Below, one piece after another: positions 785 to 62,725 of a DNA stretch of 64,000 bases (its first letter is position 1; every line of letters starts with the position of its first letter). The notes under the pieces were generated by a model, which made no database searches, was not told the origin of the DNA, and saw only the letters and a program-made list of their open reading frames with translations. This DNA is from Anaerolineae bacterium (GTDB taxonomy: Bacteria > Chloroflexota > Anaerolineae > J102): positions 5,147 to 69,146 of the forward strand of contig JALXCB010000046.1 in NCBI GenBank assembly GCA_026991225.1, given 5' to 3'. The position numbers and the translations under genes were made by a program.

Positions 785-935
785 GTAAACCGGGAAGCCG
801 GTAGACCAGTAGACCGGGCGGGGCGAATCGGCCTGGTTTCCCTGATTTCCTGGTTTACCGGTTTACGGGGGTACGCAGCCCGCCATTTTCATCCATCGCG
901 ACGCGAGCTCGCCCGCCCCGGACTTGCACTGAACA
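785..935. repeat. Family B palindromic element, copy B1
   Basis: AAACCGGGAAGCCGGTAGACCAGTAGACCGG...CCTGGTTTCCCTGATTTCCTGGTTTACCGGTTT + GCAGCCCGCCATTTTCATCC tail. Confidence 0.8.
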
Positions 936-958
936 CTGAATACTGATTACTGAAAACC
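925..958. repeat. Family E (ACTGATTACTGA / AGTAATCAGT motif) copy E1
   Basis: GCACTGAACACTGAATACTGATTACTGAAAACC. Confidence 0.55.
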
Positions 959-994
959 TGGCCCCTTGTACGAGGGATCGCCAACGGAGGAACA

Positions 995-2395
995 ATGAAA
1001 AAGTACCATATCTGGACCATCGGCTGCCAGATGAATGTGGCCGATTCCACCCACGTCGGCGCGGAACTGGAAAAACTGGACTATGAGCCCACCGCGGACG
1101 TGGATGAAGCGGATATCGTCGTGCTGAACACCTGCGTGGTGCGGCAGAGCGCCGAGAACAAAGCCCTGGGCAAACTGGGAGCCCTCAAGCCCTGGCGTCA
1201 GAGCAAACCCGACCGCACCCTGGCCCTCATGGGCTGCCTCGTAGGCGTGAAACCCTCGCCCAGGCTACTACGCGCCTATCCCTGGGTGGACGTGTTCATG
1301 GGCCCAAGCGAGGCCAAACCCCTGGTCGACCACATCAAAAACCGCATGACCGCGGAGGAATTGCGCCGCCTGGAGGAGCGCCAGATCGCGCTGCGCCATC
1401 GCTTGCAAGATGAAGCCTATCCCATCGCTTCCCTCAAGCATCTTTCGCTGACGGGCGAACCGCCCGTGGCCGCGTATGTGCCCGTGGTCTACGGCTGCTC
1501 CCACGCATGCACCTTCTGCATCATTCCCTACCGTCGTGGCGTGGAACGTAGCCGCCCGCTGGATGAGATCGTGGCCGAGGTGCGGGGACTGGTCGCCCAA
1601 GGCGTGCGGGAAGTCACCCTGCTGGGGCAGATCGTCGACCGCTATGGCTACGACTTCCCCGACCGCCGCCCGAATCTGGTGAATCTGTTGGAGGCGGTGC
1701 ACGAGGTCGAGGGGTTGTGGCGCATCCGCTTCCTCACCGGGCATCCCAGCTACATGAGCGACGATCTATTGCGGACCGTGGCCCGGCTGCCCAAAGTCAT
1801 GCCCCACATCGAGGTTCCCATCCAGGCCGGGGATGATGAGATGCTGGCCCGGATGAAGCGGGGCTACACCGCGGACGACTACCGCCGCCTGGTGCATCGC
1901 ATCCGCGAAATCATCCCCGACGTCGCTATTCACACCGATATCATCGTCGGTTTCCCGGGCGAAACCGAGGCCCAATTCCAACGCACTTACGACATCCTGG
2001 AGGAATTGCGGCTGGAGAAGGTGCACATCGCCCGCTACAGCCCCCGGCCCGGCACCGTCAGCGCCCGCCGCATGGTCGACGACGTGCCCGAGGCGGAGAA
2101 AAAGCGCCGCCACCAACTTCTCGAGGCCCAACACGAGCGCATTAGCCGCGAGCTCAACCGCCGCTGGCTCCATCAGACGGTGGAAGTGTTGGTGGAGGAC
2201 TTGCACAAAGGCAAATGGCGCGGGCGCACGCCCCAGAACCGGCTCGTCTTCTTCGAAGATGATCGGGACCTGCGCGGGCGGCTGATGGAGGTCGCCATCA
2301 CCTGGACGGGCCCATGGAGCATGCAGGGCGTGGCCGCGGATCGCCTGGCCGAGGAGCGGGAGGTTCCCGTGGGCGTCGTTGTTGGAGGGCGGTAA
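995..2395 (+). CDS. miaB: tRNA methylthiotransferase (MiaB family: radical SAM with UPF0004 N-domain and C-terminal TRAM domain)
   Basis: 466 aa. N-terminal ...WTIGCQMNVADS... MTTase cysteine motif. Radical SAM motif CSHACTFC. C-terminal TRAM-like region. GGAGG-like SD before the ATG. Confidence 0.8.
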   Translation: MKKYHIWTIGCQMNVADSTHVGAELEKLDYEPTADVDEADIVVLNTCVVRQSAENKALGKLGALKPWRQSKPDRTLALMGCLVGVKPSPRLLRAYPWVDVFMGPSEAKPLVDHIKNRMTAEELRRLEERQIALRHRLQDEAYPIASLKHLSLTGEPPVAAYVPVVYGCSHACTFCIIPYRRGVERSRPLDEIVAEVRGLVAQGVREVTLLGQIVDRYGYDFPDRRPNLVNLLEAVHEVEGLWRIRFLTGHPSYMSDDLLRTVARLPKVMPHIEVPIQAGDDEMLARMKRGYTADDYRRLVHRIREIIPDVAIHTDIIVGFPGETEAQFQRTYDILEELRLEKVHIARYSPRPGTVSARRMVDDVPEAEKKRRHQLLEAQHERISRELNRRWLHQTVEVLVEDLHKGKWRGRTPQNRLVFFEDDRDLRGRLMEVAITWTGPWSMQGVAADRLAEEREVPVGVVVGGR

Positions 2396-2439
2396 AAAAA
2401 AGGCGACACGAGCTATGGCTCGCTGATACGAAATGGGAA

Positions 2440-2520
2440 CGCTGATTTTCGCTGATGATTTTCACAGATTTTTTATCTGCGTTCATCCGTTTCAATCTGC
2501 GTCATCTGCGTTCCCTAATC
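2440..2520. repeat. Family D element, copy D1
   Basis: GCTGATTTTCGCTGATGATTTTCACAGATTTTTTATCTGCGTTCATCCGTTTCAATCTGCGTCATCTGCGTTCC. Confidence 0.7.
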
Positions 2521-2533
2521 CTATTTTCGGAAC

Positions 2534-2573
2534 AAAAAAGCCCCCCGCCGCGTGGCAGGGGGCTTGATTTTTG
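2534..2573. terminator. Bidirectional rho-independent terminator between convergent miaB and the LysM gene
   Basis: AAAAAA-GCCCCCC-loop-GGGGGC-TTGATTTTT. GC stem flanked by an A-run and a T-run. Confidence 0.6.
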
Positions 2574-10961: not shown

Positions 10962-10999
10962 CGCCATAGCAATGGAAACTCGGCCCACTGGGCAGGAAA

Positions 11000-11160
11000 A
11001 TCTCTCACGCAAAAGCGTCAAGTCGTCAAGACAAGTTTGCAAGTCGCAGGTGGCGGGTGGCAGGTGACAGGCGGAAGGAAGCAAGTAGAGCTGCGCAAGC
11101 TGACTTGCCACCTGCCAACACTTCTTTTCCCCCTTGCGCCCTGGCGTCTTTGCATGAGAT
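11000..11160. repeat. Family G element, copy G1 (terminal inverted repeats; 3' TIR abuts the hemL stop)
   Basis: ATCTCTCACGCAAAAGCG...TTTGCAAGTCGCAGGTGGCGGGTGGCAGGTG...CTTGCCACCTGCC...CGTCTTTGCATGAGAT. Confidence 0.75.
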
Positions 11161-12449
11161 CAAATGGCGCGGAAGGTCCTGTGCGCGGCTTCGACGGTGG
11201 CGTCGATGACCGCATCGTCGTGGGCCAGGGACATGAAGCCGGCCTCGAATTGGGAGGGGGCGAGATAGACGCCCGCTTCCAGCATGGCCCGGAAGTAGCG
11301 GGCGAAGCGTGCCGTATCGCTGGCCGCAGCCGAATCCCAGTCGGTGACCGGGCCTTCGGTGAAGAAGGCGGCGAACATGGTACCCACTCGGGTCTGATAG
11401 ATGGGCACGCCCGCGGCCCGGGCCGCGTCGCCGATGCCCCGAGACAATCGCTCCGTCCGGGCCTCCAGCGTCTCCCACACACCCGGCTCCGTCAGCTTGC
11501 GCAGGGTGACGATGCCCGCGGTCATGGCCAGGGGGTTGCCGGAAAGGGTCCCGGCCTGATAGACCGACCCCACCGGCGCCACCATCTCCATGATCTCCCG
11601 CCGGCCGCCGTACGCGCCCACAGGCAGCCCCCCGCCGATGACCTTGCCCAGGCAGGTGAGGTCGGGCCGGATGCCGTAGAGGGTTTGCGCGCCGCCCGGA
11701 TGCACGCGAAAGCCGGTCATCACCTCATCGAAGATGAGCAGCGCGCCATGGGCCTGGGTTATCGCCTGCAGCCCCTGCAAAAAGCCCTCTGCCGGAGGCA
11801 CGACGCCCATATTCCCGGCCACGGGCTCCACGATGACCGCGGCGATCTCTTCGGGGAACGCGTCGAACAGCGCCCGCACCGAGTCCAGATCGTTGTAGCG
11901 GGCGACCAGGGTGTCCTGCACCATGGCCGGGGGCACGCCGGGCGAATCGGGCAGGCCCAACGTCGCCACGCCCGACCCTGCCTGCACCAGCAGCAAGTCG
12001 GCATGGCCGTGATAGCAGCCCTGGAATTTGATGATCTTGTGGCGGCCGGTGTAGGCCCGGGCCAGGCGCAGCGCGCTCATGGTGGCCTCGGTGCCCGAAT
12101 TGACGAAGCGCACCATCTCGATGTTGGGCATGAATTCGGTCACCAGCCGGGCCAACTCGATCTCCAGGGGCGAAGGAGCGCCGTAGCTGGTGCCCTTGCG
12201 AACCGCCTCGGTCAGGGCGTCGACCACGTCGGGATGGGCGTGGCCCAGGATGAGCGGGCCCCACGAGAGCACGTAATCGATGAAGCGGTTGCCGTCCACG
12301 TCGAACAGATAGGGCCCCTCGCCCCGCTCGATGAACAGGGGCTGGCCGCCCACCGACTTGAAGGCCCGCACGGGCGAATCCACCCCGCCGGGGAGCAGGC
12401 TTTGGGCCTGGGAAAAGAATTGTTGGGATCGGGTGGTGTTGAGAGTCAT
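11160..12449 (-). CDS. hemL: Glutamate-1-semialdehyde 2,1-aminomutase
   Basis: 429 aa with the classic HemL N-terminus (...[23 protein letters not shown]...) and a class-III aminotransferase fold. Confidence 0.9.
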
Positions 12450-12990: not shown

Positions 12991-13089
12991 GCAGGACCTT
13001 ATCGGACAATCCAACGGCTCGCCGATACGAACGGAAATGGGAATGCTGATGACACGGATGCTTCGCAACGCAGATTTCCGCAGATCTGT

Positions 13090-13290
13090 TCCGAAAATAG
13101 CGTTGGCCCTCCCTGCCAAAAGTCGCCATGCCAACGTTGGGCGAGGCTGCAACGGACGTGATGAGTAATGCGTAATCCGTGAGATCGTTACGCATCACGC
13201 ATTACGCATTACGTGCTTGGCTTCCCGCGCCGCCCTGGCCGCGAGACATTTTCATCGGTATCGGCGCGCCGCCGCGCATGGCGCCTTCGT
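13090..13290 (+). repeat. Family A MITE-like element, copy A1
   Basis: ...CCGAAAATAGCGTTGG...CCAACGTTGGGCGAGGCTGCAACGG + CGTGATGAGTAATGCGTAATCCGTGAG...CGCATCACGCATTACGCATTACG hairpin + GGCTTCCCGCGCCGCCCTGGCCGCG...TTTTCATCGGTATCGGC tail. Confidence 0.8.
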
Positions 13291-13365
13291 TCTGATTTTT
13301 TCTGCGTTCATCTGCTTGCATCCGCGTTCACCTGCGTTCTCTCATCCTGGCTTCGGAACAAGGAT
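13291..13365. repeat. Family D copy D2 (overlaps the last ~15 codons and stop of hemY)
   Basis: CTGATTTTTTCTGCGTTCATCTGCTTGCATCCGCGTTCACCTGCGTTCTCTC. A D-like fragment also sits at about 13060-13090. Confidence 0.7.
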
Positions 13366-14750: not shown

Positions 14751-14764
14751 AGAGTGATCTTACG

Positions 14765-14840
14765 TTGAGTAATCAGTTATCAGTAAACAGTAATCAGTGG
14801 GGGCGCGGATGGATACTGATTACTGATCACTGTTTACTGA
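14765..14840. repeat. Family E copy E3 (palindrome between hemY start and hemE stop)
   Basis: GAGTAATCAGTTATCAGTAAACAGTAATCAGTG...CACTGATTACTGATCACTGTTTACTGATTAC. Confidence 0.7.
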
Positions 14841-15908
14841 TTACTTCCGGTTAAATTCATGGACCATTGCGACGACGGCCCGCACGTTCTCCACGGGCGT
14901 GTGCTGCAAGATGCCGTGGCCCAGGTTGAAGATGTGGCCCGGTCGACCCGCCGCGCGGGTCAACACGTCCCGCACCTGGTTTTCCAGCTCGGGCAGGGGG
15001 GCGAAGAGTGCGGTGGGATCGAGATTGCCCTGCACGGCCACGTCGTCGCCCAACAGCGCCCATCCTTCATCCAGAGGGATGCGCCAATCCAGGCCGATGA
15101 CATGCCCGCCCGCGGCCTTCATCTCCCCTAGCAGCGTGGTTGCGCCCACGCCGAAGTGGATGACGGGGACGTCGGCCCGGGCCATGAGGGTTTGTAGAAT
15201 CTGGCGGGAATAGGGCTGGACGAAACGGCGGTAATCCTGAGGATTCAGTGCGCCCACCCAGGAATCGAAGAGCTGCAAGGCCTGTGCGCCCGCGTCGGCT
15301 TGCGCCAGCAGATAATCGATGAGCACGGGCGTGAGTTTTTGCATGAGGGCGCGCCAGGCGGCGGGCTGCCCGTACATGAGCTTCTTGGTTTCGACGAAGT
15401 TGCGGGACGGCCCGCCCTCGATAATGTAGGCGGCCAGGGTGAAGGGCGCTCCTGCGAAACCGATGAGGGGAACGTCCCGACCATCCAACTCCGTCCGCAC
15501 CAGGCGGATGGCCTCGTACACATGCCCCAGGTCGGCCCGCACGTCCACTGGCCGGAGCGCGGCCACGTCGTCGGGCGAGCGCACGGGGTTGTGGATGACG
15601 GGCCCGCGGCCGGGGACGAATTCCAGCTTCAGGCCCATGGGCGGCAGGGGCAGGAGGATGTCGGCGAAGAGGATGGCCGCGTCCACGCCCAGGGTGTCCA
15701 CGGGCTGGAGGGTGATCTCGGCCGCGACCTCGGGCCGGGCGATCATCTCCAGGATGCTCTTGTGCTGGCGGCGGATGGCCTGGTATTCGGGCATGTAGCG
15801 CCCGGCCTGGCGCATGAACCAGACGGGCGTCGTGTCAGTAATCAGTCTTCGAGTGGCTCTCAGAAATCTCGATGTTGGCTCGTTAGTCATCATTGTCAGG
15901 GTTCTCAT
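14841..15908 (-). CDS. hemE: Uroporphyrinogen decarboxylase
   Basis: ...TPVWFMRQAGRYMPEY... is the canonical HemE N-terminal motif. Start may be Met6/Met7 of the listed ORF. Confidence 0.9.
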   Translation of the reverse strand: MRTLTMMTNEPTSRFLRATRRLITDTTPVWFMRQAGRYMPEYQAIRRQHKSILEMIARPEVAAEITLQPVDTLGVDAAILFADILLPLPPMGLKLEFVPGRGPVIHNPVRSPDDVAALRPVDVRADLGHVYEAIRLVRTELDGRDVPLIGFAGAPFTLAAYIIEGGPSRNFVETKKLMYGQPAAWRALMQKLTPVLIDYLLAQADAGAQALQLFDSWVGALNPQDYRRFVQPYSRQILQTLMARADVPVIHFGVGATTLLGEMKAAGGHVIGLDWRIPLDEGWALLGDDVAVQGNLDPTALFAPLPELENQVRDVLTRAAGRPGHIFNLGHGILQHTPVENVRAVVAMVHEFNRK

Positions 15909-15919
15909 TGGAAAAGTAA

Positions 15920-15974
15920 TCAGTCATCAGTCCAACGGTTTGTTCCTCACTGATTACTGCTTACTGATAACTGA
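15920..15974. repeat. Family E copy E4 (between hemE start and the rSAM stop)
   Basis: GAAAAGTAATCAGTCATCAGTCC...CACTGATTACTGCTTACTGATAACTGATTAC. Confidence 0.65.
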
Positions 15975-17129
15975 TTACTTCGCCTCGCGAAAGGCTTCAG
16001 GAACGTACACACACGCCGGGTCAGTTTCCAGATAATCGCCGGTGACGCCATAGGCCCGGCCGCGCTGGCCGCCGCACACGTCGCGGAATTCGCAGACGCC
16101 GCAGCGGCCCTTCAGTTTGTCGGGGTCCCGCAGGTCTTTGAATAAAGGATGGTTGCGATAGACCTCGACCACGTCATCTTTGCGGACGTTTCCGGCCACG
16201 ATGGGCAGGAAGCCGGAGGGTTCGATATTGCCGATGTGGGAGATGAAGAGGAAGCCATTGCCGTCGTTGACGCCTTTGGTGGGGCGGTTGAGGCCGTCCG
16301 CGTACTGGAAGCCCGCGCCCTGGAAGGCGATGGGCGCATCTTCGCCCAGTTCCTGGCGCTTGCGCTGGATGGCCACGCGGCGATACATGGGCGCGGCCGT
16401 GGCTTTGACGTCGAAAGGCGCTTCTTGGGCCAGGTCATACAGCCAATTGAAAATGCGCTCGTGCTCCTCGGGGGAGATCATCCAGTCGATCTGGCCCCGG
16501 CCCGTGGGCACCAGGAAGAAGACGGACCACTGCACCGCGCCCACCTCTTCGATGAAAGGCACCATCTCGGGCAGGATGTGGGCGTTGTGTTTGGCGACGG
16601 TGGTGTTCACCTGCACGCTCAGGCCCACGTCATGCGCCCGATGCAGGATGTCCATGGTGCGCTGCCAGGAGCCCGCCACCTTGCGGAAGTCGTCGTGGAT
16701 GGCGGGGCGGGGCGCATCCAGGCTAAGGGCGATGCGGCGGATGCCCGCGTCCCGGGCCTTTTGCAGCCGCTCTTTGGTGGGCAGAGCCGTGGCCGTGGGC
16801 GTCAGGGAGCAGCGCAGGCCCTTTTCAGTGGCGTAGGCGATGAGATCGAACAGGTCGCGGCGCATCATGGGGTCGCCGCCGGTGAAGATGAGGATGGGAT
16901 GGTTGCCGAACGCGGCCAGCCGATCGATGAGCTGAAAGCCTTCCTCGGTGGTGAGTTCCAGGGGATGGCGTTGGGGTTGGGCGTCGGCCCGGCAGTGGAC
17001 GCAGGCGTAGGCGCAGGCCCGGGTCACTTCCCAGGCGATGGTGAAGGGCGCTTTGTCGAAGTCCGCGTGCACCATGCGCCGGTCGTGGTAGGTGCGTTCG
17101 GCTGTGGCGGAGGGGGTGAGGTTGGACAT
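15975..17129 (-). CDS. Radical SAM/SPASM-domain protein, AhbD/NirJ-like, embedded in the heme operon
   Basis: 384 aa. CAYACVHC (CxxxCxxC). C-terminal Cys cluster ...KGRCGVCEFRDVCGG...DPACVY (SPASM-type auxiliary cluster motifs). Sits between hemB and hemE on the same strand. Confidence 0.7.
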   Translation of the reverse strand: MSNLTPSATAERTYHDRRMVHADFDKAPFTIAWEVTRACAYACVHCRADAQPQRHPLELTTEEGFQLIDRLAAFGNHPILIFTGGDPMMRRDLFDLIAYATEKGLRCSLTPTATALPTKERLQKARDAGIRRIALSLDAPRPAIHDDFRKVAGSWQRTMDILHRAHDVGLSVQVNTTVAKHNAHILPEMVPFIEEVGAVQWSVFFLVPTGRGQIDWMISPEEHERIFNWLYDLAQEAPFDVKATAAPMYRRVAIQRKRQELGEDAPIAFQGAGFQYADGLNRPTKGVNDGNGFLFISHIGNIEPSGFLPIVAGNVRKDDVVEVYRNHPLFKDLRDPDKLKGRCGVCEFRDVCGGQRGRAYGVTGDYLETDPACVYVPEAFREAK

Positions 17130-17263
17130 GGGAGGATTGGGATTGGGATTGGAAGATTCGTCTTTTGTGACACGGATGGAAGGAACACGGATGACATTCG
17201 ATTGATGCTATCATTAAGCCATTTTCCCATCCGTGTTTTCTTTTATCCGTGTTGCATGACCTT

Positions 17264-20790: not shown

Positions 20791-20831
20791 GAGAGTGGAG
20801 ATTGGGATCAGGATAGGATGAGGGAACGTAG

Positions 20832-20972
20832 CCAGGTTGGCGCGGGAAGCCACTCCCGTAATGCGTGATGCGTAAGGAGCTCACGGATTACGCATTACGC
20901 ATCACGTCGGTTGCAGACTCGCCCACCGTGGGCTTCGAGTCATTTTTGCAAACCAACGCTATTTTCGGAGCA
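20832..20972 (-). repeat. Family A copy A2 (inverted orientation)
   Basis: Same modules in reverse complement. Its terminal CCGAAAATAGCGTTGG module supplies the hemA stop codon. Confidence 0.8.
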
Positions 20973-22224
20973 GATAGTCTTCCAGGGCGAAGAGGTCCTG
21001 AATGGCGCGGGCGTAGGGTTCGGCGTTGCCGCGGGCGGCCTGGGCCTTAAGCTGCAAGGTGGGTTCATGCAGGAGTTTGTTGACCAGCCGATGGGCGAGG
21101 CGGGTCATCTGATCGGCGACGATGGTATCATCGTGCGGAAGCTTGCGCAAGGCTTGTTCCAGCTCGGCCCGGGCCAGATCGTTGGCCTTGCGGCGCATGC
21201 CCACCAGCACCGGCAGCACTTGGCGGCTTCCCAGCCAGGCCATATAGCCATCCGCCGCCTCGGCGACCATGACTTCCACCTGAGGAATAGCGGCCTGCCG
21301 CTCCTCCAGGTTGTGCTGCACGATCTCCTGAATGTCATCCAGCACAAAAAGCTCCACGTGGGGAAGGCTCGCGACCGCGGGATCGATGGCGCGCGGCACG
21401 GAAAGATCCACCAGGATGAGAGGACGGGCCCGGCGGGGCGTCATGGCGGGCGTGATCAGGAAGCCGTCGCCCCCCGCGGCCACGATCACGGCGTCGGCCC
21501 AGCTCAGGCCATCTGGCAGTTGGCTGAGGGGGTGGGCAGTCGCCTGGACGCGGTCAGCCAGGGCCTGCGCCCGGGCCAGAGTGCGGTTGTAGATGCGGAT
21601 GCGGGCGTCGCTGAGCCCGGCCGCGTGCTTGGCCACCAGCGACCCCATCTCCCCCGCGCCCACGATGGCCAGACGCTTGCTCTGACTCAAGGCCGCATGA
21701 CCATCCACCCAGCGCATGACCACCGACCCGATGGAGACGGCGTTGCGGCTGATGGGGGTTTCGGTGCGGGCCCGCTTCCCCGTCTGAATGGCCGTGCGGA
21801 AGAGCTCGGCCAGTTGCGGGCCGATGGCGTGCACTTCCAGCCCCATCTCATAGGCATCCCGCACCTGGCCCAAAATCTGTGGTTCGCCCAGCACCATGGA
21901 ATCGAGCCCGCAGGCGACGCGGACCAGATGGTCGACGGCATCCCGCCCCTGCCAGACATACAGATAGCGTTGCAACTGGCTGGCGGAGAATCCCGTTCGG
22001 GCCTGGAAGAAGTCGCGGAGGAGGCCCATAGCCGCAGACGCGTCCGAGGCCGCCAGATACCACTCCGTACGATTGCAGGTGGAGAGGACGGCGGCCTCAT
22101 CGATGCTGGGGTGGGCCGTAAGTTGGATCAGGGCCTCTCGGGCAGCCTCGCCTTCGATGGCGAAGGCCTCGCGATGGGCCAGCGGCGTGGTGCGGTGGTT
22201 CAAGCCAAGGCAAAGGATCGTCAT
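20959..22224 (-). CDS. hemA: Glutamyl-tRNA reductase
   Basis: Start at MTILCLGLNHRTTPLAHREAFA... ...LSTCNRTEWY... catalytic Cys motif. NADPH-binding GAGEMG. Stop codon lies in the terminal module of an A-family repeat. Confidence 0.9.
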   Translation of the reverse strand: MTILCLGLNHRTTPLAHREAFAIEGEAAREALIQLTAHPSIDEAAVLSTCNRTEWYLAASDASAAMGLLRDFFQARTGFSASQLQRYLYVWQGRDAVDHLVRVACGLDSMVLGEPQILGQVRDAYEMGLEVHAIGPQLAELFRTAIQTGKRARTETPISRNAVSIGSVVMRWVDGHAALSQSKRLAIVGAGEMGSLVAKHAAGLSDARIRIYNRTLARAQALADRVQATAHPLSQLPDGLSWADAVIVAAGGDGFLITPAMTPRRARPLILVDLSVPRAIDPAVASLPHVELFVLDDIQEIVQHNLEERQAAIPQVEVMVAEAADGYMAWLGSRQVLPVLVGMRRKANDLARAELEQALRKLPHDDTIVADQMTRLAHRLVNKLLHEPTLQLKAQAARGNAEPYARAIQDLFALEDYLLRK

Positions 22225-23349: not shown

Positions 23350-23547
23350 GGTTCCATGCGACGCAAGGGGTGGGATATGAGAAAAGGTGCGACTTGACCG
23401 AAATGAGCTGGCATTCCGATAGGTCGCACCTGTTTTGTATACGAACAATCGAAGCCAATTGTTCCTCAACGTTCTTTTCAGGCGACACGGGCAGCAACCC
23501 GCCGTTACGGATGAAAACGCCCCGCGGCCGGGGCCGTGCAGGAAGCC

Positions 23548-23650
23548 AAGCACGTAATGCGTGATGCGTAACGATCTCACGTTTCACGTTTTCACGCATC
23601 ACGCCCGTTGCAGACTCGCCCAACCTTGGCTTTGCGAACCTTCAGCAACC
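23548..23650 (-). repeat. Family A copy A3 (inverted)
   Basis: GTAATGCGTGATGCGTAACGATCTCACG...CGCATCACGCCCGTTGCAGACTCGCCCAACCTTGG. Confidence 0.7.
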
Positions 23651-23666
23651 AGCGATCATTCGATTT

Positions 23667-24854
23667 TCATAGCAGCTCGATGGCCATAGCCACGGCCTCG
23701 CCGCCGCCCAGACAGAGCGCGGCCACGCCCCGCCGCCCGCCCGTCTGGCGCAGGGCGTAGATCAGGGTGGTGAGGACGCGGGCGCCGCTGGCTCCCAAAG
23801 GATGCCCCAGGGCGATGGCCCCGCCGTGGATATTGACCTTCTCCGGGTCTAGCCCCAGTTCGATGATGTTTTGCAGGGATTGGGCGGCGAAGGCTTCGTT
23901 CAGCTCGAACAGATCGACGTCGGCCAGGCTCCAGCCGATGCGGTCCATGAGGCGGCGGATGGCGTGGGGGGGCGCGGTGAAGACTTTGAGGGGCTCGACC
24001 GCGGCGTGGGTGTAGCCGATGATGCGGGCCAGGGGCGTCAGGCCATGGGCTTGAGCGTACTCGGGATGGGCGATAACCGTGGCGGCTGCGCCGTCGCTGA
24101 TAGGCGGCGCATTGCCCGCGGTGACCGTGCCCCCTTCCTCGAACGCGGGCCGCAGTCGAGCCAGGGCCTCCAGGCTCGTGTCCGGGCGGATGGGCTCATC
24201 CCGATCCACGACCACCTCCTTGCGCTTCTGTTTCACCGTGATGGGAACCATCTCATCTTTGAACAGCCCCTCCTCGGTGGCCCGAACCGCGCGCATGTGG
24301 CTCTGATAGGCGAACTGGTCCTGCATCTCGCGAGTGATGTTGAAAGTGCGGGCGATCCATTCCGCCTCGTTGCCCATGTGCAAGCCGTTGAAAGGATCGA
24401 TGAGGCCGTCATGCACGGTAGCGTCCAGCACCTCGCCATTGCCCAGGCGGTAGCCGAAGCGGGCTTTGGGCAGCATGTAGGGCCCCATGCTCATGGCCTC
24501 CATTCCCCCTGCCACATAGAGCCGACCATCGCCGGCGCGGATGGCGCTGGCCGCGAACATGACCGCGCGCAGGCCCGAACCGCACACCTTGTTCAGGGTG
24601 ACCGCGCCCACGCTCTCGGGCAGGCCGCCGAAGACGGCCGCCTGGCGGGCCGGGGCCTGGCCCGTGCCCGCGGGGATGACCTGCCCCATGAACACTTCCT
24701 CGACCTCGGCGGGATCAATGCCCGACCGTTCCACCACCGCCCGGATGACGTGCGCGCCCAGTTTGGGCGCAGGGATGTTGCTGAGCGCACCGCCCAACCG
24801 GCCGCCGGGCGTGCGGGCTGCGGCAAGGATGACAGGATAAATCGGTTGGTTCAT
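23667..24854 (-). CDS. Acetyl-CoA C-acetyltransferase (thiolase II)
   Basis: Start at [18 protein letters not shown]... Thiolase active-site regions (...NKVCGSGL..., ...[12 protein letters not shown]..., C-terminal ...[13 protein letters not shown]). Confidence 0.85.
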
Positions 24855-24867
24855 GACAAGGCTCCTG

Positions 24868-25065
24868 TTCCGAAAATAGCGTTGCATTGGTTTACAAAAA
24901 TAACTCGAAGCCCCCGTTGGGCGGGTCTGCTACAGACGTGATGCGTAATCCGTAATCCGTGAGGTCATTACGCATCACCCATTACGCATTACGTAGCTGG
25001 CTTCCCGCGCCGCCCTGGCCGCGGGGCGTTTTCATCGGTATCGGCAAACGTCGCTCGCGGCGCAT
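24868..25065 (+). repeat. Family A copy A4 (fills the whole thiolase-to-pdp spacer)
   Basis: All three modules present. Confidence 0.8.
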
Positions 25066-25070
25066 GAAAT

Positions 25071-26378
25071 TCATTCAATCGTCTTTTTAATCAACGCGGG
25101 CGGCGTCACGGGTTCATCGCTCCAGGCGTAGGCGGTCAGAAGCTCTTCGGCCGCGGCCCGGGCCTCGGCTTCGGTGCGGGCGTGGATGTCGCAGAGGACG
25201 TCGCCCGCATCCACCCGGTCGCCGATCTTCGCCCGCAGGACGACGCCCACGCGATGGTCGATGAGATCGCCCTTCTTCTCGCGGCCGCCGCCCAGCTTCA
25301 CCGTGACTTCGCCGAATGTGCGAGCGCGCACCTGGCTGAGATAGCCCGATTGAGGGGACGTCAGGGGCAGGACCACGGGCGCGGCGGCCAGGATGGCGTC
25401 GGGATCGTCGGCCACGCGAGGATCGCCGCCCTGATAGGCCACGAACATTTGGAATTTGCGCAACGCCCGGCCGCTGGCCAGGGCCTCTTCCACGCGGGAT
25501 CGCCCCTCCTCCACGCTGTCCACTCGCCCGCACATCTGCAATAGATGCGCGGCCTCGGTGAGGATGAGTTCGGTGAAATCGGCCGGGCCTTCGCCCTTGA
25601 GGGTGGCGATCGCCTCCTTCACCTCCAGCGCATTGCCCACGGCCAGGCCCAAAGGCTGATTCATGTCGGTGACCCGGGCCGCGACCTTGCGCCCGGACAG
25701 CTTGCCGATGGCGACCATAAGCCGGGCCAGCTCCACCGCGTCCTCCAGTATCTCCATGAACGCGCCATTGCCGGTTTTTACGTCAAGCAAAATCACGTCC
25801 GCGCCCGCGGCCAGCTTCTTCGACATGATGGAGGAGGCGATGAGGGCCATGCTGGGCACGGTCGCGGTCACATCGCGCAGTGCGTAAAGCTTCTTGTCCG
25901 CGGGAGCCAGTTCCGCGGTCTGCCCGGCCACGACGATGCCGATGTCGGCCAGTTGCTTCTTGAATTCCTCAATGGTCAGCTCCGCCCGCCAGCCGGGGAT
26001 GGATTCCAGCTTGTCCAGGGTGCCGCCCGAGAAGCCCAGTCCCCGGCCCGACATCTTGCCGATGGGCTGGCCCGCGGCCGCGACGATGGGCGCCAGGGCC
26101 AGGGTCACCTTGTCGCCCACGCCGCCGGTGGAATGCTTGTCCGCCACGGGCCTGACCACGTCGCTCAGGTCGAGGGTCTCGCCCGAATGGGCCATGCTCA
26201 GGGTGAGGTCGGTGACCTCGCGGTCGGTCATACCTCGTAACAGCACGGCCATGGCCCAGGCCGCGGCCTGGTAGTCGGGAATCTCGCCCCGCGTGTACCC
26301 CTGGATGAAGAAATCGATCTCCTCGGTGGTCAATTCCAGACCGTCTCGTTTTTTGGCGATGATATCGACAGCGCGCAT
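25071..26378 (-). CDS. pdp: Pyrimidine-nucleoside (thymidine) phosphorylase
   Basis: About 435 aa from the ATG at 26376-26378. ...[20 protein letters not shown]... and ...[13 protein letters not shown]... glycosyltransferase-family-3 motifs. Confidence 0.85.
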
Positions 26379-26404
26379 GGGAACTCCTGCTATGAAAATA
26401 GATT

Positions 26405-26562
26405 TGGAGGACGCAGATAACGCAGATTGAAACGGATGAACGCAGATGATAAAGAAAAAATCTGCGAAAATCATCTGCGAAAATCTGCATTGCGAAGCAT
26501 CCGTGTCATCTGCGCTCTCATTTTCATTGGTATTGGCGCGGGCTTGCCCGCCATCGGACTGC
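26405..26562. repeat. Family D copy D3
   Basis: GACGCAGATAACGCAGATTGAAACGGATGAACGCAGATGATAAAGAAAAAATCTGCGAAAATCATCTGCGAAAATCTGCATTGCGAAGCATCCGTGTCATCTGCGC. Confidence 0.75.
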
Positions 26563-26574
26563 TATAAAAATTGA

Positions 26575-26740
26575 TTTGGCAGACCGGGAAACCGGTAGAC
26601 CGGTAGACCAGTAAACCGGGTGGGGGAGCGAATCGGCCCGGTTTCCCTGGTTTCCTGGTTTACCGGGTTACGGGACTACGGGGCTACGCACCCCGCCATT
26701 TTCGTCCGTGTCGGCGAGCTTGCGCTTGGGCCGCCTGCGT
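26575..26740. repeat. Family B copy B2
   Basis: GACCGGGAAACCGGTAGACCGGTAGACCAGTAAACCGGG...CCCGGTTTCCCTGGTTTCCTGGTTTACCGGG + ACGCACCCCGCCATTTTCGTCC tail. Confidence 0.8.
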
Positions 26741-26900
26741 TGAAAATAACGTTGCGTTGGTTTGCAAAAAAGACTTGAAGCCCACGTTGGGCGAGCCTGC
26801 CACGGGCGTGATTCGTGAAGACGTGAAACGTGAGGGCTTTACGCATCACGCATCACGGTTCACGAATTCGGCTCCCCGCGCCAACGTGGCCGTTAACGTT
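26741..26900 (+). repeat. Family A copy A5
   Basis: GTTGAAAATAACGTTGCGTTGG...CCCACGTTGGGCGAGCCTGCCACGGGCGTGATTCGTGAAGACGTGAAACGTGAGG... Confidence 0.75.
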
Positions 26901-27027
26901 TTATTGCGTATTTGTCGCTCAAGTATACTGCAACCCGAGAGAAATCATAAAAACCGCGCCGCGCTTCAAGCGCAGACTTCGATTTGTAGATTCCCTCACA
27001 TTTGCATACAATAGGCGTCAATTCTCG

Positions 27028-27200
27028 TAACTACTAAGGTGTCGCCGCCACTTTTTGCCACGAAGACACGAAGAAAAGCGAAGGCGCGACGTATTTTTCT
27101 TTATTTTTCCTTCGTGTCTTCGAAAAACTTCGAGCCTTCGTGGCAAGACGTTTTCAGCGCCGAATCAGGCTGCCTGAGCAGTTACGCCGCCACCTTCCTC
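27028..27200 (+). repeat. Family C element, copy C1
   Basis: GTAACTACTAAGGTGTCGCCGCCACTTTTTGCCACGAAGACACGAAGAAAAGCGAAGGCGCGACGTATTTTTCTTTATTTTTCCTTCGTGTCTTCGAAAAACTTCGAGCCTTCGTGGC... is an imperfect long palindrome. Confidence 0.8.
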
Positions 27201-29119: not shown

Positions 29120-29171
29120 TCCATGATCTGTCCAACCGCGAATGCTTCCTCATCGAGATGGATGAAAATGG

Positions 29172-29262
29172 CAACCGGTAGACCGGAAAACCAGTAGACC
29201 GGGAAACCATGCGTAGACCGGCTATGCCAGGTCTACTGGTCTCCTGGTTTCCTGGGTTATCA
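29172..29262. repeat. Family B copy B3 (inside the decarboxylase operon gap)
   Basis: CCGGTAGACCGGAAAACCAGTAGACCGGGAAACC...GGTCTACTGGTCTCCTGGTTTCCTGGG. Confidence 0.75.
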
Positions 29263-29280
29263 AGAGCGTCTCCCTAAACT

Positions 29281-34962: not shown

Positions 34963-35062
34963 TCGAAAAAAGAACGCAGATGACGCAGATTTGAACGGAT
35001 TGATGTGGATAAAAATCCGTGATTGTCCGCGATGCGAAGCATCTGCGGCATCAGCGTTCCCC
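34963..35062. repeat. Family D copy D4
   Basis: AACGCAGATGACGCAGATTTGAACGGATTGATGTGGATAAAAATCCGTGATTGTCCGCGATGCGAAGCATCTGCGGCATC. Confidence 0.7.
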
Positions 35063-42984: not shown

Positions 42985-43160
42985 TTTCCTTGTAAGATGT
43001 AACTGCTAACGTACTGGACTTTAGGCCGCCAAAAGCCACGAAGGCTCGAAGTTTTTCGAAGATACGAAGGAAACATAAAGAAAAATACGTCGTGCCTTCG
43101 CTTTTCTTCGTGTCTTCGTGGCAAAAAGTGGCGGCGACACCTTAGTAGTTACTGTAAGAT
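42985..43160 (-). repeat. Family C copy C2 (inverted; abuts the BNR gene start)
   Basis: Reverse complement of C1 with more than 85% identity. Confidence 0.8.
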
Positions 43161-43298
43161 TGAATGAAGCGGATCCGATCGACCGAACGACCAGACGACC
43201 AGACGACCGCGCGTCGAAAAGCCGGGCAAAAATAACAAGAACTCCTCGGAAACGCAAATTCCCCGCCGCGTTTCATTCCCGGCTTGATGACAATTTTT

Positions 43299-44243
43299 TC
43301 ATTCCCGCCCAAACAGCCAATCCAGAAACGAGCGCTTCTTCCTCGGCTCGGGCGTTGTCGCCGTCTCAGAAGCGGGTGCGGGGGGCGTCGCCGAGTCGGA
43401 TGGGGAGGGTTCAGGCGCGGGCATGGGCGTTTGGGCGGCCGCGGGCGCAGGGGGTCGGGCCTGAGGCGCGGGCGGGGAAGGCGTTGGCGTTGGAGTGGAA
43501 GCAGGCGCAGGGGCGGGCGGATAAGGAGGCTGGTAAGGAATCGCTGCCGCAGGGAAAACAGGTTGGCGCTGACTGCGCACCAGATCATCCAGTTGGCGCT
43601 GCAATTGAAACATGTACGCCTCCATCTGCCGCATCCGCTCCCGCTCATCCTCCCGATAGCGCTCCATCTCCCGTTTCATCTCGAAAATGCGCCGCTCGGT
43701 CTCCACCATGCGCTCCCGCAGACGTTTGTTCTCTTCCTTGAGATTCATGTTGTCCTGAATCACAATGCTCAGCAATTCCCGCTCGGTCTGCTGTCCCGTG
43801 ATGATCATTTGCTGGCTGCCCGATAGCGTCGAGATCATCTGCGCCATCATCCTTCCCAGATCCGCGGCATCCTCCCCCAACACCATCTCGCCTGCTTCCT
43901 CGCCCCGGGCGGGCTCCTCCGCCCTGACCGACCCGCCTTCCTCCTCGACCTCGCCTTCCACGACGGTCACCTCGGGTTCGAAATTTATCTCCAGCATCGC
44001 CGCCACCTGGTCGAAGGTGAGGCCCTGGCTGAGAAGGGTTTTGCAGCGGGCGAGCACGGCCAGGTCCTCGGGCGTGTAGCGGCGATGCCCGCGCGTCCCA
44101 TCGGCCGGGCGCAAGCCATGGGCCTGGGGCGACAGAAACGCGGCAAAGCGCCGCGACCATCGTCGCAGGGTGGACGCGGGAATGCCGAGGCGCTGGGCGG
44201 CCTCGGCGGGTCGGATCAAGGCGTCGTCTTCAGAGGACATCAA
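43299..44243 (-). CDS. MerR-family transcriptional regulator with coiled-coil and Pro-rich C-terminal region
   Basis: N-terminal ...AAQRLGIPASTLRRWSRRF... HTH. Long charged coiled-coil. PAPAP-rich tail. Confidence 0.7.
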   Translation of the reverse strand: MMSSEDDALIRPAEAAQRLGIPASTLRRWSRRFAAFLSPQAHGLRPADGTRGHRRYTPEDLAVLARCKTLLSQGLTFDQVAAMLEINFEPEVTVVEGEVEEEGGSVRAEEPARGEEAGEMVLGEDAADLGRMMAQMISTLSGSQQMIITGQQTERELLSIVIQDNMNLKEENKRLRERMVETERRIFEMKREMERYREDERERMRQMEAYMFQLQRQLDDLVRSQRQPVFPAAAIPYQPPYPPAPAPASTPTPTPSPPAPQARPPAPAAAQTPMPAPEPSPSDSATPPAPASETATTPEPRKKRSFLDWLFGRE

Positions 44244-44249
44244 CGGCTT

Positions 44250-44440
44250 CGCGTTCGTCTACAAAAGCTACTCGAAACCCACATTGGGCGAGGCTGCAAT
44301 GGGCGTAAAACGTCAAACGTGAAACGTCATGTCCTCACGCATCACGTTTCACTTGTCACGTCATCGGCTTCCCGAGCCGCTCTGGCCACAAGGCTTTTTT
44401 ATTCGTATCGGTGATCTCTCGCTCGCGTAGCCCGGTTTCG
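44250..44440 (+). repeat. Family A copy A6
   Basis: ...CCCACATTGGGCGAGGCTGCAATGGGCGTAAAACGTCAAACGTGAAACGTCATG...GGCTTCCCGAGCCGCTCTGGCCACA...TTATTCGTATCGGTG. Confidence 0.75.
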
Positions 44441-46661: not shown

Positions 46662-46662
46662 A

Positions 46663-46692
46663 TACAGTGTTCAGTGTTTAGTGTTCAGCTAT
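46663..46692. repeat. Family E-related fragment E6 (CAGTGTTCAGTG variant)
   Basis: ACAGTGTTCAGTGTTTAGTGTTCAGC. Related to the reverse complement of E1. Confidence 0.4.
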
Positions 46693-48454: not shown

Positions 48455-48612
48455 ATGTAACTGCCTAAGGTCGCGCCGCCGCTTTTTGCCACGAAGATAC
48501 GAAGAAAACGAAGGCACAACGTATTTTTTATTTTATCCCTTCGTGTCTTCGAAAAACTTCGAGCCTTCGTGGCTTTTGGCGGCCTAAAGTCCAGTACGTT
48601 AGCAGTTACGAA
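48455..48612 (+). repeat. Family C copy C3
   Basis: TAAGGTCGCGCCGCCGCTTTTTGCCACGAAGATACGAAGAAAACGAAGGCACAACG...CGAGCCTTCGTGGCTTTTGGCGGCCTAAAG. Confidence 0.8.
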
Positions 48613-48949: not shown

Positions 48950-49069
48950 CGGACCTCCTTTGGCGTTGTGTGTGGTCGTGTGTGTGGCATGGGATGGAAA
49001 AGATTTCCTATGCGTCTCTCATCATACCTGATAACCGAAGAAATCCGAAATGATCCAGATCATTTGCCT

Positions 49070-49128
49070 AACCCAAACGTATTTTGAAATCAGGTGCTTT
49101 CGGCCTCGGCCACCCGGAGCTGATGAAC
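49070..49128. repeat. Family F copy F2
   Basis: AACCCAAACGTATTTTGAAATCAGGTGCTTTCGGCCTCGGCCACCCGGAGCTGA. Confidence 0.65.
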
Positions 49129-52894: not shown

Positions 52895-52927
52895 GCGGTG
52901 CTCCTTGGGTGAGAGATGAGAGAAAAT

Positions 52928-52986
52928 GACGATGGACGATGGCGCTAAGCCTTATCGTCCACCGTCCATCGTCTATCGTCTGTTTT
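52928..52986 (-). terminator. Hairpin terminator immediately downstream of the P-type ATPase gene
   Basis: GACGATGGACGATGG...CCACCGTCCATCGTC inverted repeat followed by a U-rich tract on the minus strand. Confidence 0.45.
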
Positions 52987-58300: not shown

Positions 58301-58374
58301 GAACCGCCTCCTGAGTTCGAGTGAGAGAAAGCAACTACTCACGTAGCGAGGTCAAAAACCACAAAGACACGACG

Positions 58375-58475
58375 ACACGAAGCGCGAAGGGGAAAAGTGG
58401 CAGGTAGCAGGTGGCAAGTGGCGGATGAAAAACGTCGCTGCCAGAAGAACTTGCCGCTTGCAACTTGCAAACCTG
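58375..58475. repeat. Family G copy G3 (partial/rearranged)
   Basis: GTGGCAGGTAGCAGGTGGCAAGTGGCGG...CTTGCCGCTTGCAACTTGCAAACCTGC. Confidence 0.6.
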
Positions 58476-58489
58476 CATTCTTTTCGTCC

Positions 58490-58590
58490 CCTCCCCTGAG
58501 CGTAGCTTGGGGGAGCCGGAGGGGGTCGAGCCTTCGTGGCAAGGCGTTTTCGAGGTCGAATCAGGTTACCTGAGCAGTTACAGAGAAATG
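58490..58590 (+). repeat. Family C partial copy C4
   Basis: ...GTCGAGCCTTCGTGGCAAGGCGTTTTCGAGGTCGAATCAGGTTACCTGAGCAGTTAC matches the 3' half of C1. Confidence 0.6.
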
Positions 58591-61928: not shown

Positions 61929-61944
61929 GGAAGTGGCTCCTTGT

Positions 61945-62075
61945 TCGGAAAACAGTGTGATTTGCAAACGCTCGCCAGCCCAACGTTGGGCGAGGCGACA
62001 ACGGGCGTCAAACATCAAACATCATGCGTCATGTCCTGACGTTTGACGAAGTCGGTTTGCCGCGCGAACGCGGGG
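61945..62075 (+). repeat. Family A copy A7 (inside the glmS leader, between ribozyme and start codon)
   Basis: GCTCGCCAGCCCAACGTTGGGCGAGGCGACAACGGGCGTCAAACATCAAACATCATGCGTCATGTCCTGACGTTTGACGAAGTCGG. Confidence 0.75.
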
Positions 62076-62104
62076 AAACGCCCGTGCAGGCGCGACCGGG
62101 GTCC

Positions 62105-62335
62105 TGGATCTTGACTTCTGCCACTGCCCCTTCCCTTGTCCCGCGGTCGCCCGTGGGCTTTCGGGTGAGACTTTGCGCGTTCCCATGACGTCCGGTGGTG
62201 GCTGCACCGGGAAGGCATCCGCCGATCTCTCGATTTTCCCACTGGCCCGAGCCAGGGTTAGGCCGCCCTTGCGGACGACAACCTTCTCCTCGTCAACTGC
62301 GCCGCCCCTTGCGGGCGCAGTCCAGGCGCTGCGTC
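62105..62335 (-). ncRNA. glmS ribozyme (GlcN6P-responsive self-cleaving riboswitch) in the glmS 5' leader
   Basis: The minus strand reads AGCGCCUGGACUGCGCC...GACGAGGAGAAGGUUGUCG...CGGCGGAUGCCUUCCCGGUGCAGCC... These align with the B. subtilis glmS ribozyme core (AGCGCCAGAACU..., CACGAGGAGGAGGUUAUCG, CGGCGGAUGCCUCCCGGCUG). The 3' boundary is approximate. Confidence 0.7.
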
Positions 62336-62679
62336 ATGGTGGTTGGGAACGTAGGTTACATGTTCGGGTCAGGCCATAAACAAGCCTCCATTCAGTAGTG
62401 AAGAGTAAAGATTAGCATCTTATCAGTGACATTTTAGCCCGCTGAGCTAAAAGTTACACAGAGCTCACAGAGCTGCTTTGGAGCTTCACAGAGATTCATT
62501 GATTATTTTTTCTCTGTGTAACTCTGTGTTCCTTCCTGGTTCCAGCCTGTCCGGGTTAGGATTGAGGATAGGAGGATTATAGAGGAAGGACGGGGGATTG
62601 GCAAACCGCATCGCGTCCGTATGACAGGCTATTGGCCTGGTAGGCCGAGAACGGGGCAGTGAGCGCCCCCAGCTCCGGT

Positions 62680-62725
62680 TTCCCGGTCTACCGGTCTTCG
62701 GGTTTCCTGGTTTCCCCATCCTGTT
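62680..62725. repeat. Family B partial copy B5 (overlaps the histidine kinase C-terminus)
   Basis: CCGGTTTCCCGGTCTACCGGTCTTCGGGTTTCCTGGTTTCCCC. Confidence 0.6.

Follow-up and report, generated by a model that had tools for sequence, protein, structure and literature searches.

What fills the space between the genes of an Anaerolineae chromosome? The question is raised by a 64,000-nt stretch of an Anaerolineae bacterium (GenBank assembly GCA_026991225.1, contig JALXCB010000046.1, positions 5,147 to 69,146; hereafter, the window), which is chromosomal, has a GC content of 62%, and is made up of housekeeping genes whose spacers are crowded with short repeats. A sequence-only reading had sorted these repeats into at least seven families, A to G, of miniature inverted-repeat transposable elements (MITEs). 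We favor a different division, to which we assign a probability of about 55%: two kinds of repeat, classical MITEs and mosaic units composed of a head, a hairpin, and a tail, build the intergenic DNA. The mosaic system apparently dominates in the window and has apparently gone undescribed so far; our literature search returned no paper on such repeats in Anaerolineae or Caldilineae.

The repeats themselves are present wherever they had been reported and exceed chance by a wide margin. By hand, we summed ~35 mostly palindromic repeat elements covering ~4.7 kb, or roughly half of the ~8.6–8.7 kb of noncoding DNA; self-BLAST marked 4.9 kb of the window as repeated, 2.9 kb thereof noncoding. Relative to dinucleotide shuffles, the family A core occurred seven times (0.02 expected), the family B motif GGTAGACC 15 times at five loci (0.04 expected), the family D motif GCAGATG six times (0.06 expected), and the family E motif ACTGATT 15 times at four loci (0 expected), and families C, F, and G were recovered as repeat families by a repeat search of the window. 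Tandem Repeats Finder called 37 tracts with a period of 7–8 nt, 33 of which fall in the noncoding 13.7% of the window (binomial p ~1e-24), and most hairpins are more stable than shuffled sequence (z from −2.5 to −7.3). The placement between genes described earlier holds for most elements, with one family E tract (13930–13962) lying within the hemY coding region. Could all this be low-complexity noise or an artefact of assembly? Some B-type and G-type tracts do fold no better than shuffles, and repeats can be collapsed in metagenome-assembled genomes (MAGs). However, motif counts of 6–15 stand against at most 0.06 expected, five independent assemblies (including the NCBI MAGs GCA_027029385.1 and GCA_054007015.1) that are 99.7–99.97% identical to the window carry identical elements, and a number of further MAGs and metagenome contigs contain the same families. 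This explanation, to which we give practically no weight, is refuted by the shuffle controls together with the independent assemblies. Scanning 185,579 species genomes with the family A core pattern gave matches mainly in Anaerolineae MAGs, and the nearest named homologues of the window’s thiolase belong to Caldilineales or Caldilineae. We therefore take the source to be an uncultured member of Caldilineales; Deinococcus, at which the GC content and the glmS ribozyme had hinted, was rejected on these grounds. For the hemE product, an exact protein look-up gave no match.

The designation as MITEs is right for family C and for a relative at 58331–58581, which are genuine. Their terminal inverted repeats (TIRs) of 11–14 nt, GTAACTRCTAA(S)GT, have ends (GTAACTRCTAASGT ... 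ACSTTAGYAGTTAC) that are sharp in an alignment of the flanks. The C-type elements are noncoding and ~155–250 bp long, with individual lengths of 142–311 bp; four copies belong to the window, and at least 12 more come from other loci (numbered L001, L016, and so on; these are element-rich or homologous loci fetched for comparison). A TIR-pair scan of all loci examined found perfect 8-bp target-site duplications (TSDs) at nine distinct copies, to which the copy at 48457 was added by eye as a tenth; a copy in L019 and, after a one-base shift, the 58331 element have duplications matching at seven of eight positions. In the flank alignment, the TSDs read ATCTTACA and GAATGGAT for copies in the window and GAATGATC, CTTTCCCC, and ACGCATTT for copies in L076. 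The last of these provides a filled site for comparison with an empty one: the C copy at 16405–16557 of L076 sits inside an F module at ACGCATTT, where the F copies of the window are uninterrupted. The 58331 element contains a nested heptamer hairpin that is missing from its copies in L016 and L009. Separately, a C copy in L019 (1350–1660) holds a ~160-nt nested CACGGAG/CTCCGTG heptamer hairpin in its central loop. Hairpins therefore also arise within other elements. IS66 inverted repeats start with GTAAGCG and are accompanied by 8-bp direct repeats (PMC11946415); family C ends likewise start with GTAA and have 8-bp target duplications, but the agreement between the TIRs covers the first 4 nt only. 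A DDE transposase, most likely an IS66-type enzyme, would have mobilized family C in trans, and no autonomous partner with family C TIRs was found in the window or the comparison loci. With the family C MITE, Chloroflexota would have a well-defined mobile element.

Families A, B, D, and G are built otherwise. Each of their units begins with a head, CTGYTNYGAAAATAG, continues with a variable region of tandem 7–8-nt repeats that usually pairs as a 70–150-nt hairpin, and ends with a tail, ATTTTCATCGGTATCGG, and a small GC hairpin plus CGCCTG, which in arrays continues directly as the head of the following unit. Both motifs recur, with 0 occurrences expected by chance, and since both modules are common to A, B, D, and G, these four represent one architecture in different versions. 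F is part of a module of ~240 nt (29283–29522), and the E hairpins of the window have neither head nor tail. Family A copies align over ~200 nt; nhmmer collected ~45 from the window and the loci, 25 of them full length and many in tandem. Head and tail also flank other types of cassette, among them ACACGGATG, GACGATG, and CGTCATTTCGAGGGAGCG, the first of which lies between head and tail in L016 and L022. Family F is likewise an interior module, flanked in L001 by a head (position 3079) and a tail (position 3455). Its copies (29283–29522 in the window, 16164–16404 and 3047–3178 in L076, and 3196–3365 in L001) comprise four to five GC hairpins, two of which, in the copy of the window, end in GTGA loops. 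From copy to copy, compensatory changes (CCCGCAGG/CCTGCGGG vs. CCCGGAGG/CCTCCGGG and GCCCCA..TGGGGC vs. GCCCCC..GGGGGC) keep the pairing. The F module has the look of an independent structured element.

The ends of the units show how far the two kinds of repeat differ. No TIRs were found at the ends of A, B, D, or G units; instead, solitary units have the head core, CTGYTNYGAA, directly repeated at both ends. The inverted repeats that had been taken for TIRs in families A, B, D, E, and G lie inside the elements, as the two arms of hairpins. We also considered head and tail as imperfect TIRs, and the likeness of CCGAAAAT to CCGATGAAAA is too weak, direct repeats describing the ends better. The search for TSDs proposed in the sequence-only reading gave 8-bp duplications for family C and its 58331 relative, and none beyond the head motif itself in an alignment of 25 full-length A copies, of which 24 included 45 nt of flank at either end. 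These results bear on an alternative in which each of the seven families consists of ordinary MITEs that derive from DDE transposons by deletion and are mobilized in trans, with palindromic arms as TIRs. All families are indeed multicopy, intergenic, and found in both orientations, copies are present in some relatives and absent from others, and family C and the 58331 element fit fully. For A, B, D, and G, however, the alternative is already contradicted by the direct head repeats and the missing TSDs. Moreover, it does not account for co-oriented tandem arrays with a fixed junction, for cassettes that are not palindromic, or for heads and tails that persist at orthologous sites as interiors change, and no transposase was found in the window or in ~30 element-rich loci. 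As an explanation of all seven families, we consider it very unlikely.

Arrays can be read directly in L016, L022, L015, L032, and L076, and in each of those read, heads and tails succeed one another on one strand. The head-to-tail distance varies from 84 to 431 nt, and the tail-to-head distance is 35–38 nt in most junctions, with one of 44 nt. Tail and head together form a junction hairpin of ~52 nt, J, bounded by TTTTCAT...ATGAAAA. For the inner stem, eight or more self-complementary sequences were counted, which include CGAGC/GCTCG, CGAAC/GTTCG, CGCGC/GCGCG, GGAC/GTCC, TGAGC/GCTCA, and GCGGGC/GCCCGC, and a stem of 5–6 bp is kept throughout. Folded sequence by sequence (the two J variants sit one column out of register in the alignment), J was more stable than the mean of its own shuffles in 37 of 47 sequences. 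The nonpalindromic cassettes, found in L032 and L076, have two arms of different heptamer types, and because such cassettes combine unlike types, the arms behave as exchangeable modules.

Such arrays might suggest that J is a recombination site acting as folded single-stranded DNA, as attC does in integrons, and that the hairpins are noncoding cassettes moved by a site-specific recombinase or an HUH enzyme acting at the head core. The arrays are cassette-like and have a constant, imperfectly palindromic junction with conserved outer boxes and an inner stem that varies while its pairing is kept. Units are gained or lost exactly at head cores, different cassettes occur at one site beside the same head, and the repetition of the head core at both ends of solitary units is also as expected. 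Nevertheless, neither an integrase nor an HUH gene was found in the window or the ~30 element-rich loci, the arrays are scattered over hundreds of gene borders with no single platform, and homologous recombination between 15-nt heads accounts for the same data without a dedicated enzyme. We regard this explanation as improbable.

The mosaic units are closely fitted to genes. They fill spacers completely, from stop codon to ribosome-binding site (RBS), and reversed heads ending in ...CAG are fused to the RBS (GGAG) of the genes for thiolase, pyrimidine-nucleoside phosphorylase (PYNP), and GlmS. Among the 66 heads of all loci, 13 include the stop codon of an upstream ORF, and 11 lie 6–27 nt ahead of a start codon on the other strand. 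At tails, a terminator-like GC hairpin followed by TTTTCAT was counted 16 times at 20700–29600 (7.2 expected). A consensus scan of the same region for sigma-70-like promoters gave 0 sites, and the idea of the reversed head (TATTTT) as a promoter was rejected. These features raise the possibility that the units are resident functional punctuation (such as bidirectional terminators, stabilizers of mRNA 3′ ends, RNA-processing sites, or protein-binding arrays) selected at gene borders and homogenized by gene conversion. In its favor are the heads that supply stop codons or adjoin RBSs, the GC hairpins with TTTTCAT at tails and the T run after the reversed hairpin, and the pairing maintained in J and the F module despite variation of the stem sequence. 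Element content is stable among near-identical strains, and heads and tails are syntenic at the PYNP–thiolase and thiolase–FGase (N-formylglutamate amidohydrolase) sites of relatives whose thiolases are 91–100% identical, with relics at 87%. However, within the single operon PYNP–thiolase–FGase, one A unit (A23605) lies in sense and another (A24915) in antisense orientation, which makes a strictly sense-strand RNA role unlikely. The T runs, of 4 T, are short, the scan of 20700–29600 had given no sigma-70-like promoter, the number of units and the type of cassette differ between genomes ~5% apart, and two relatives, L087 and L058, have spacers of 55–75 nt without units. On balance, selection for punctuation is an unlikely, albeit not a negligible, account of the units. 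We conjecture that their ends, a hairpin with a T run, may act as terminators or mRNA stabilizers as a side effect.

How the units change with time is visible in a graded series of relatives obtained by searching with the thiolase: L082 (97% amino acid identity; 93–96% at the nucleotide level), L084 (92%), L085 (91%), and L087 (87%), whose spacer is shared by L058 (83% PYNP identity). In L082, the D and B units of the array at 26387–26934 are absent, with a clean break between the reversed heads TATTTTCAACGCAGG and TATTTTCATAGCAGGAG. Unit A20908 is also absent; what remains is a head-like CTGCGTTGAAA together with the final few bases of that unit. In the PYNP–thiolase spacer of L082, half a B-type cassette replaces the A unit, with the same RBS and the same reversed head next to GGAGCCTTGTCATG. 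Two orthologous A units have flanks 87–93% identical between the window and L082 and interiors only 60–65% identical; in L082, CGTGA has become CGTCA in every heptamer of one arm and TCACG has become TGACG in the other. At the PYNP–thiolase site, the stop codon is followed by a reversed tail and the RBS is preceded by a reversed head in the window, L084, and L085 alike, around interiors that differ in L084 and L085; L082 keeps the reversed head, and in the 55-nt spacer of L087 and L058 a tail-like relic is all that is left. No units were seen in L058 or in the remoter loci L059–L071. We note that L058, though devoid of units, has a head-like GGGCGAAAATAGCGTATACT at 841–900, upstream of PYNP and in sense orientation, which could be a chance match, a relic, or a hint of a native promoter-region motif. 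One further candidate for an orthologous locus, L028, was dropped as a Burkholderiaceae contig with 70% GC and a chance pattern match within coding DNA.

Since heads and tails are kept at orthologous sites across relatives, they are long-term residents of these sites. The possibility of syntenic conservation, raised in the sequence-only reading as a test of mobility, is thus partly borne out: heads and tails stay in place as interiors change, yet the number and presence of units turn over rapidly. Unit number and interiors turn over at ~5% sequence divergence and not at ≤0.3%.

A sequence of steps can be proposed for the mosaic units. Arrays may grow and shrink through unequal recombination or slippage between the 15-nt head repeats, and interiors may be swapped by gene conversion between dispersed copies, with head and tail serving as homology arms. 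Both heptamer subtypes are present in the window, where A44282 and A61984 are of the CGTCAAA subtype. The arms with their 7–8-nt period would lengthen by slipped-strand duplications that are copied to the other arm of the same hairpin. The weakest step is the first arrival at a new site; given the lack of TIRs and TSDs and the hairpin-rich ends, a DDE transposase is less likely than a single-strand or site-specific route, and the agent would probably be an HUH- or RAYT-like enzyme that recognizes single-stranded hairpins or a recombinase (RAYT, REP-associated tyrosine transposase; REP, repetitive extragenic palindrome).

Several observations weigh against the division into classical MITEs and mosaic units. 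We saw no insertion of a head–hairpin–tail unit into a virgin site, each polymorphic site having a head- or tail-like remnant in the relative; thus, mobility of this class is not demonstrated. Strains with 99.7–99.97% identity have zero element differences. Pfam searches of the 50 ORFs called in the window (47 genes and three additional calls) found no transposase, RAYT, or recombinase, and clustering the ORFs of 31 element-rich loci and the window yielded no transposase-like family present at multiple loci, ABC ATPases being the only ones to recur. In 27 of 30 family A copies, the head-to-tail strand gives the better fold, but this asymmetry probably traces to one recurrent and inherited G.T position (CGTGA opposite TTACG) and, because a single inherited feature probably explains it, is not independent evidence for a function as RNA or single-stranded DNA. 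On the side of the MITEs, the family C copy at 27027 has no TSD, and its absence from L082 is not a clean empty site. The resemblance of the family C signature to IS66 is a lead, taken from the GTAA ends and the TSD length. Finally, all comparisons cover a few dozen loci of 2–17 kb and not whole genomes.

Table 1. Repeat elements of the window, with positions in the window and orientation; z compares fold stability with that of shuffled sequence.
Element	Position	Strand	Remarks
GGATTAG-type repeat hairpin	575..650		Divergent region upstream of radical-SAM gene; tandem-repeat period 6; z = −3.4
B unit	761..925	+	Head-like GCGTTGAAAAAGCG; GGTAGACC/GGTTTCC octamer hairpin; tail CCATTTTCATCC and GC hairpin
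CACTGAA/ACTGATT heptamer tract, four copies	927..958	+	~35 nt upstream of MiaB-like start codon
D unit, reversed	2415..2535	-	Reversed tail, GCAGATG-type repeats, reversed head CTATTTTCGGAACA
G unit, degenerate	10990..11161	+	Outer arms ATCTCACGC...GCATGAGA around GCAGGTG heptamers; weak fold, z = −1.1
D unit, truncated, reversed	13020..13085	-	Adjoins head of following unit
A unit, full length	13086..13290	+	Head, CGTAATG/CGTGATG hairpin, tail, junction hairpin; nhmmer E = 6e-60
TCTGCGTTCA repeat tract, D-type arm	13296..13361	+	Overlaps hemY 3′ end
E hairpin, AGTAATC/ACTGATT arms	14763..14845		hemE–hemY spacer; 3′ arm ends ~20 nt before hemY start; z = −7.3
E hairpin	15912..15979		Spacer between radical-SAM gene and hemE; repeats end directly upstream of hemE start; z = −3.2
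GGATTG tract and ACACGGATG-type hairpin	17130..17263		Spacer between hemB and radical-SAM gene; z = −5.1
A unit without tail (A20908)	20815..20973	-	Head gives hemA stop codon (TAG); absent from L082
A unit, full length (A23605)	23476..23675	-	Thiolase stop codon (TGA) in head; present in L082 with CGTGA to CGTCA heptamers
A unit (A24915)	24865..25071	+	Fills entire PYNP–thiolase spacer; reversed head adjoins thiolase RBS; half B-type cassette in L082
D unit, first of three-unit array	26387..26558	+	Reversed head adjoins PYNP RBS; absent from L082
B unit, second of three-unit array	26559..26734	+	Absent from L082
A unit, third of three-unit array	26735..26934	+	In L082 with interior changed in concert
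C-type MITE, variant 3′ part	27027..27185	+	No TSD; 13 unrelated nt instead in L082
B-type octamer hairpin	29153..29264	+	After head-like GATGAAAATGG; oxaloacetate-decarboxylase operon; z = −4.4; L084 spacer 66 nt
F module, multihairpin	29265..29522	+	95% identity to L076 over 241 nt (29283–29522)
G unit	31173..31368	+	Head GCTTTGAAAATCG; hairpin ATCTCACGC...GCGTGAGAT around GCAGGTG heptamers; tail CCGTATCGGCGAGC; z = −6.2
B-type (GGTTTCC) hairpin	32955..33065		Spacer between HMG-CoA reductase and Sua5 genes
D-type GCAGATG repeat fragment	34963..35022	+	Fills spacer between Dyp peroxidase and M20 peptidase genes
C MITE	42999..43152	-	TIRs and perfect 8-bp TSD, TGTAAGAT on + strand
CCGAACGA octamer tract	43175..43209		Tandem-repeat call
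A unit, CGTCAAA/CGTGAAA subtype	44228..44438	+	Head lost at MerR gene start
CAGTGTT heptamer tract	46662..46690		Directly upstream of radical-SAM gene start
C MITE	48457..48609	+	TIRs and perfect 8-bp TSD GAATGGAT
Partial F module, 5′ 71 nt	49053..49123	+	Repeat match
GACGATG heptamer hairpin	52925..52985		Spacer between P-type ATPase and permease genes; z = −4.4; cassette type between head and tail in L085
Second MITE, TIRs as in C	58331..58581	+	TSD matching at 7 of 8 positions (AGAGAAA); nested GCAGGTG-type heptamer hairpin 58395–58480
Partial A unit	61942..62073	+	Between glmS ribozyme and glmS RBS; reversed head adjoins RBS
CACAGAG-type repeat hairpin	62440..62535		z = −2.5
B-type octamer repeat tract	62650..62742	-	Histidine kinase gene start; fold not significant

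The genes around these elements (Table 1) include a heme-biosynthesis operon from hemL to hemA (11160–22272, minus strand), the FGase, thiolase, and PYNP genes, an oxaloacetate-decarboxylase/carboxyltransferase operon, an AddA-like helicase gene, and glmS, ahead of which lies a glmS ribozyme. Rfam 15 at its gathering score recovered the ribozyme alone from the window. It lies at 62165–62341 on the minus strand (41.3 bits vs. a gathering score of 37), and the partial A unit behind it lengthens the glmS leader by ~130 nt. Rfam scans by E-value of 10900–13400 and 26300–31400 added only a spurious miRNA match and a weak match to Acido-Lenti-1 inside the F module (29319–29367; 28.6 bits, below the gathering score of 37). 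Viral contigs scanned for the J and C cores gave chance matches only, in which similarity never extended.

The longest-ORF starts of four genes reach into repeat units: FGase (22465–23580), PYNP (25071–26474), hemC (19879–20853), and glmS (60081–62018). Comparison with called genes of related contigs moved the true starts inward, giving 294 aa for FGase and start positions of 26378 for PYNP and 61928 for glmS (MCGIVGY). Naive ORF calls are, therefore, inflated where repeats adjoin gene starts. Heptamer tracts also occur inside ORFs. The ACTGAAT/ACTGATT tract of hemY, the protoporphyrinogen oxidase ORF (13308–14750, minus strand; tract 13930–13962, 4.1 copies) encodes ..HQYSVFSNQYAV.. and aligns without a change of length to a variable strand region of PDB 3i6d; others are TGACGTT ×3.7 at 37867–37892 in the AddA-like helicase gene and CCTCTGA ×6.1 at 59850–59892 in a glycosyltransferase gene.

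A single structural difference was found at the strain level (19462–19925 of the window vs. 10930–11195 of L077). The window has a PIN-domain toxin gene (19475–19876, plus strand) between hemD and hemC, within the minus-strand heme operon, and the MAG contig JALVGU010000828 (L077; 99.8% identical) has a different 265-nt segment with a 77-aa ORF at this site. Two small plus-strand ORFs at 12509–12990 also lie amid minus-strand heme genes, directly upstream of the D and A units at 13020–13290; one product has 76 aa and no Pfam match, the other 78 aa and a DUF2283 domain, and the pair looks like a toxin–antitoxin system.

The closest analogues of the mosaic units are the bacterial interspersed mosaic elements (BIMEs) of E. 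coli, the mosaic small noncoding repeats (SNRs) of Deinococcus, and the heptamer repeats of cyanobacteria or Beggiatoa. BIMEs, in E. coli and its relatives, combine REP palindromes of 20–40 nt in alternating orientation and depend on RAYTs. Like BIMEs, the units of the window are intergenic, often within operons at gene 3′ ends, form mosaic clusters with conserved linker motifs and variable unit number, and are species specific, varying between close strains. Unlike BIMEs, they are co-oriented, their hairpins are 70–150 nt long and consist of 7–8-nt repeats, and the conserved part is the 52-nt J. They have no GTAG-type REP head, the inner stem of J being the only REP-sized part, and no RAYT gene was found in the 64 kb or ~30 loci. 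Integrons also hold variable cassettes in arrays, split by imperfectly palindromic attC sites and served by the tyrosine integrase IntI, an attI site, and a Pc promoter. The likeness is one of mechanism by analogy only: arrays of variable cassettes whose boundary falls inside a J-like site with conserved outer boxes and a varying paired stem. In contrast to integrons, the cassettes of the window are noncoding hairpins in arrays scattered at gene borders, with no integrase, attI, or Pc promoter.

For D. radiodurans, the relevant part of PMC1978522 describes dozens to hundreds of short intergenic SNRs that fall into at least nine types, have an “unusual, mosaic structure,” and are found in one species but not in a close relative. 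As far as these descriptions allow a comparison, the window’s repeats are likewise mosaic, intergenic, and species restricted; they come from another phylum, and neither heptamer hairpins nor a head/tail junction is stated for SNRs in that part of the source. Among the 185,579 species genomes, no Deinococcus matched the A core pattern. If our description holds genome wide, the intergenic DNA of this Caldilineales lineage is almost wholly a modular repeat system that touches stop codons and RBSs and changes at about the pace of 5% nucleotide divergence. It would then provide a natural case for the origin, spread, and homogenization of BIME- and SNR-type mosaic repeats, a question open since REPs and the Deinococcus SNRs. 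In practical terms, the elements break MAG assemblies, mislead the calling of start codons, and could serve as strain markers.

The short tandemly repeated repetitive sequences (STRRs) of cyanobacteria are intergenic tandem heptamer repeats. Tandem 7-nt TAACTGA repeats occur in Beggiatoaceae, cyanobacteria, and Bacteroidetes, almost exclusively in intergenic DNA, often just upstream of start codons without a canonical RBS and occasionally inside ORFs; Chloroflexota are not among the reported hosts (PMC4679880). The family E units ACTGATT and ACTGATA are of this same TAACTGA/TTACTGA type, and ACTGATT tracts precede the starts of the MiaB-like gene, hemY, and hemE, with one within the hemY ORF. 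The tracts of the window differ from TAACTGA repeats and STRRs in that they usually pair with a complementary tract as long hairpins, have many unit sequences, and mostly lie within head–tail units. It is conceivable, though quite doubtful, that the head/J system is an undescribed attC-like or HUH-like cassette mechanism acting on single-stranded DNA and that the heptamer hairpins are made by a dedicated process shared with the cyanobacterial and Beggiatoaceae repeats; were this true, the repeats of several phyla of filamentous bacteria would have a common, enzyme-driven origin. The division into classical MITEs and head–hairpin–tail units, which we prefer, itself links mosaic repeats to the unexplained heptamer repeats of cyanobacteria and Beggiatoaceae.

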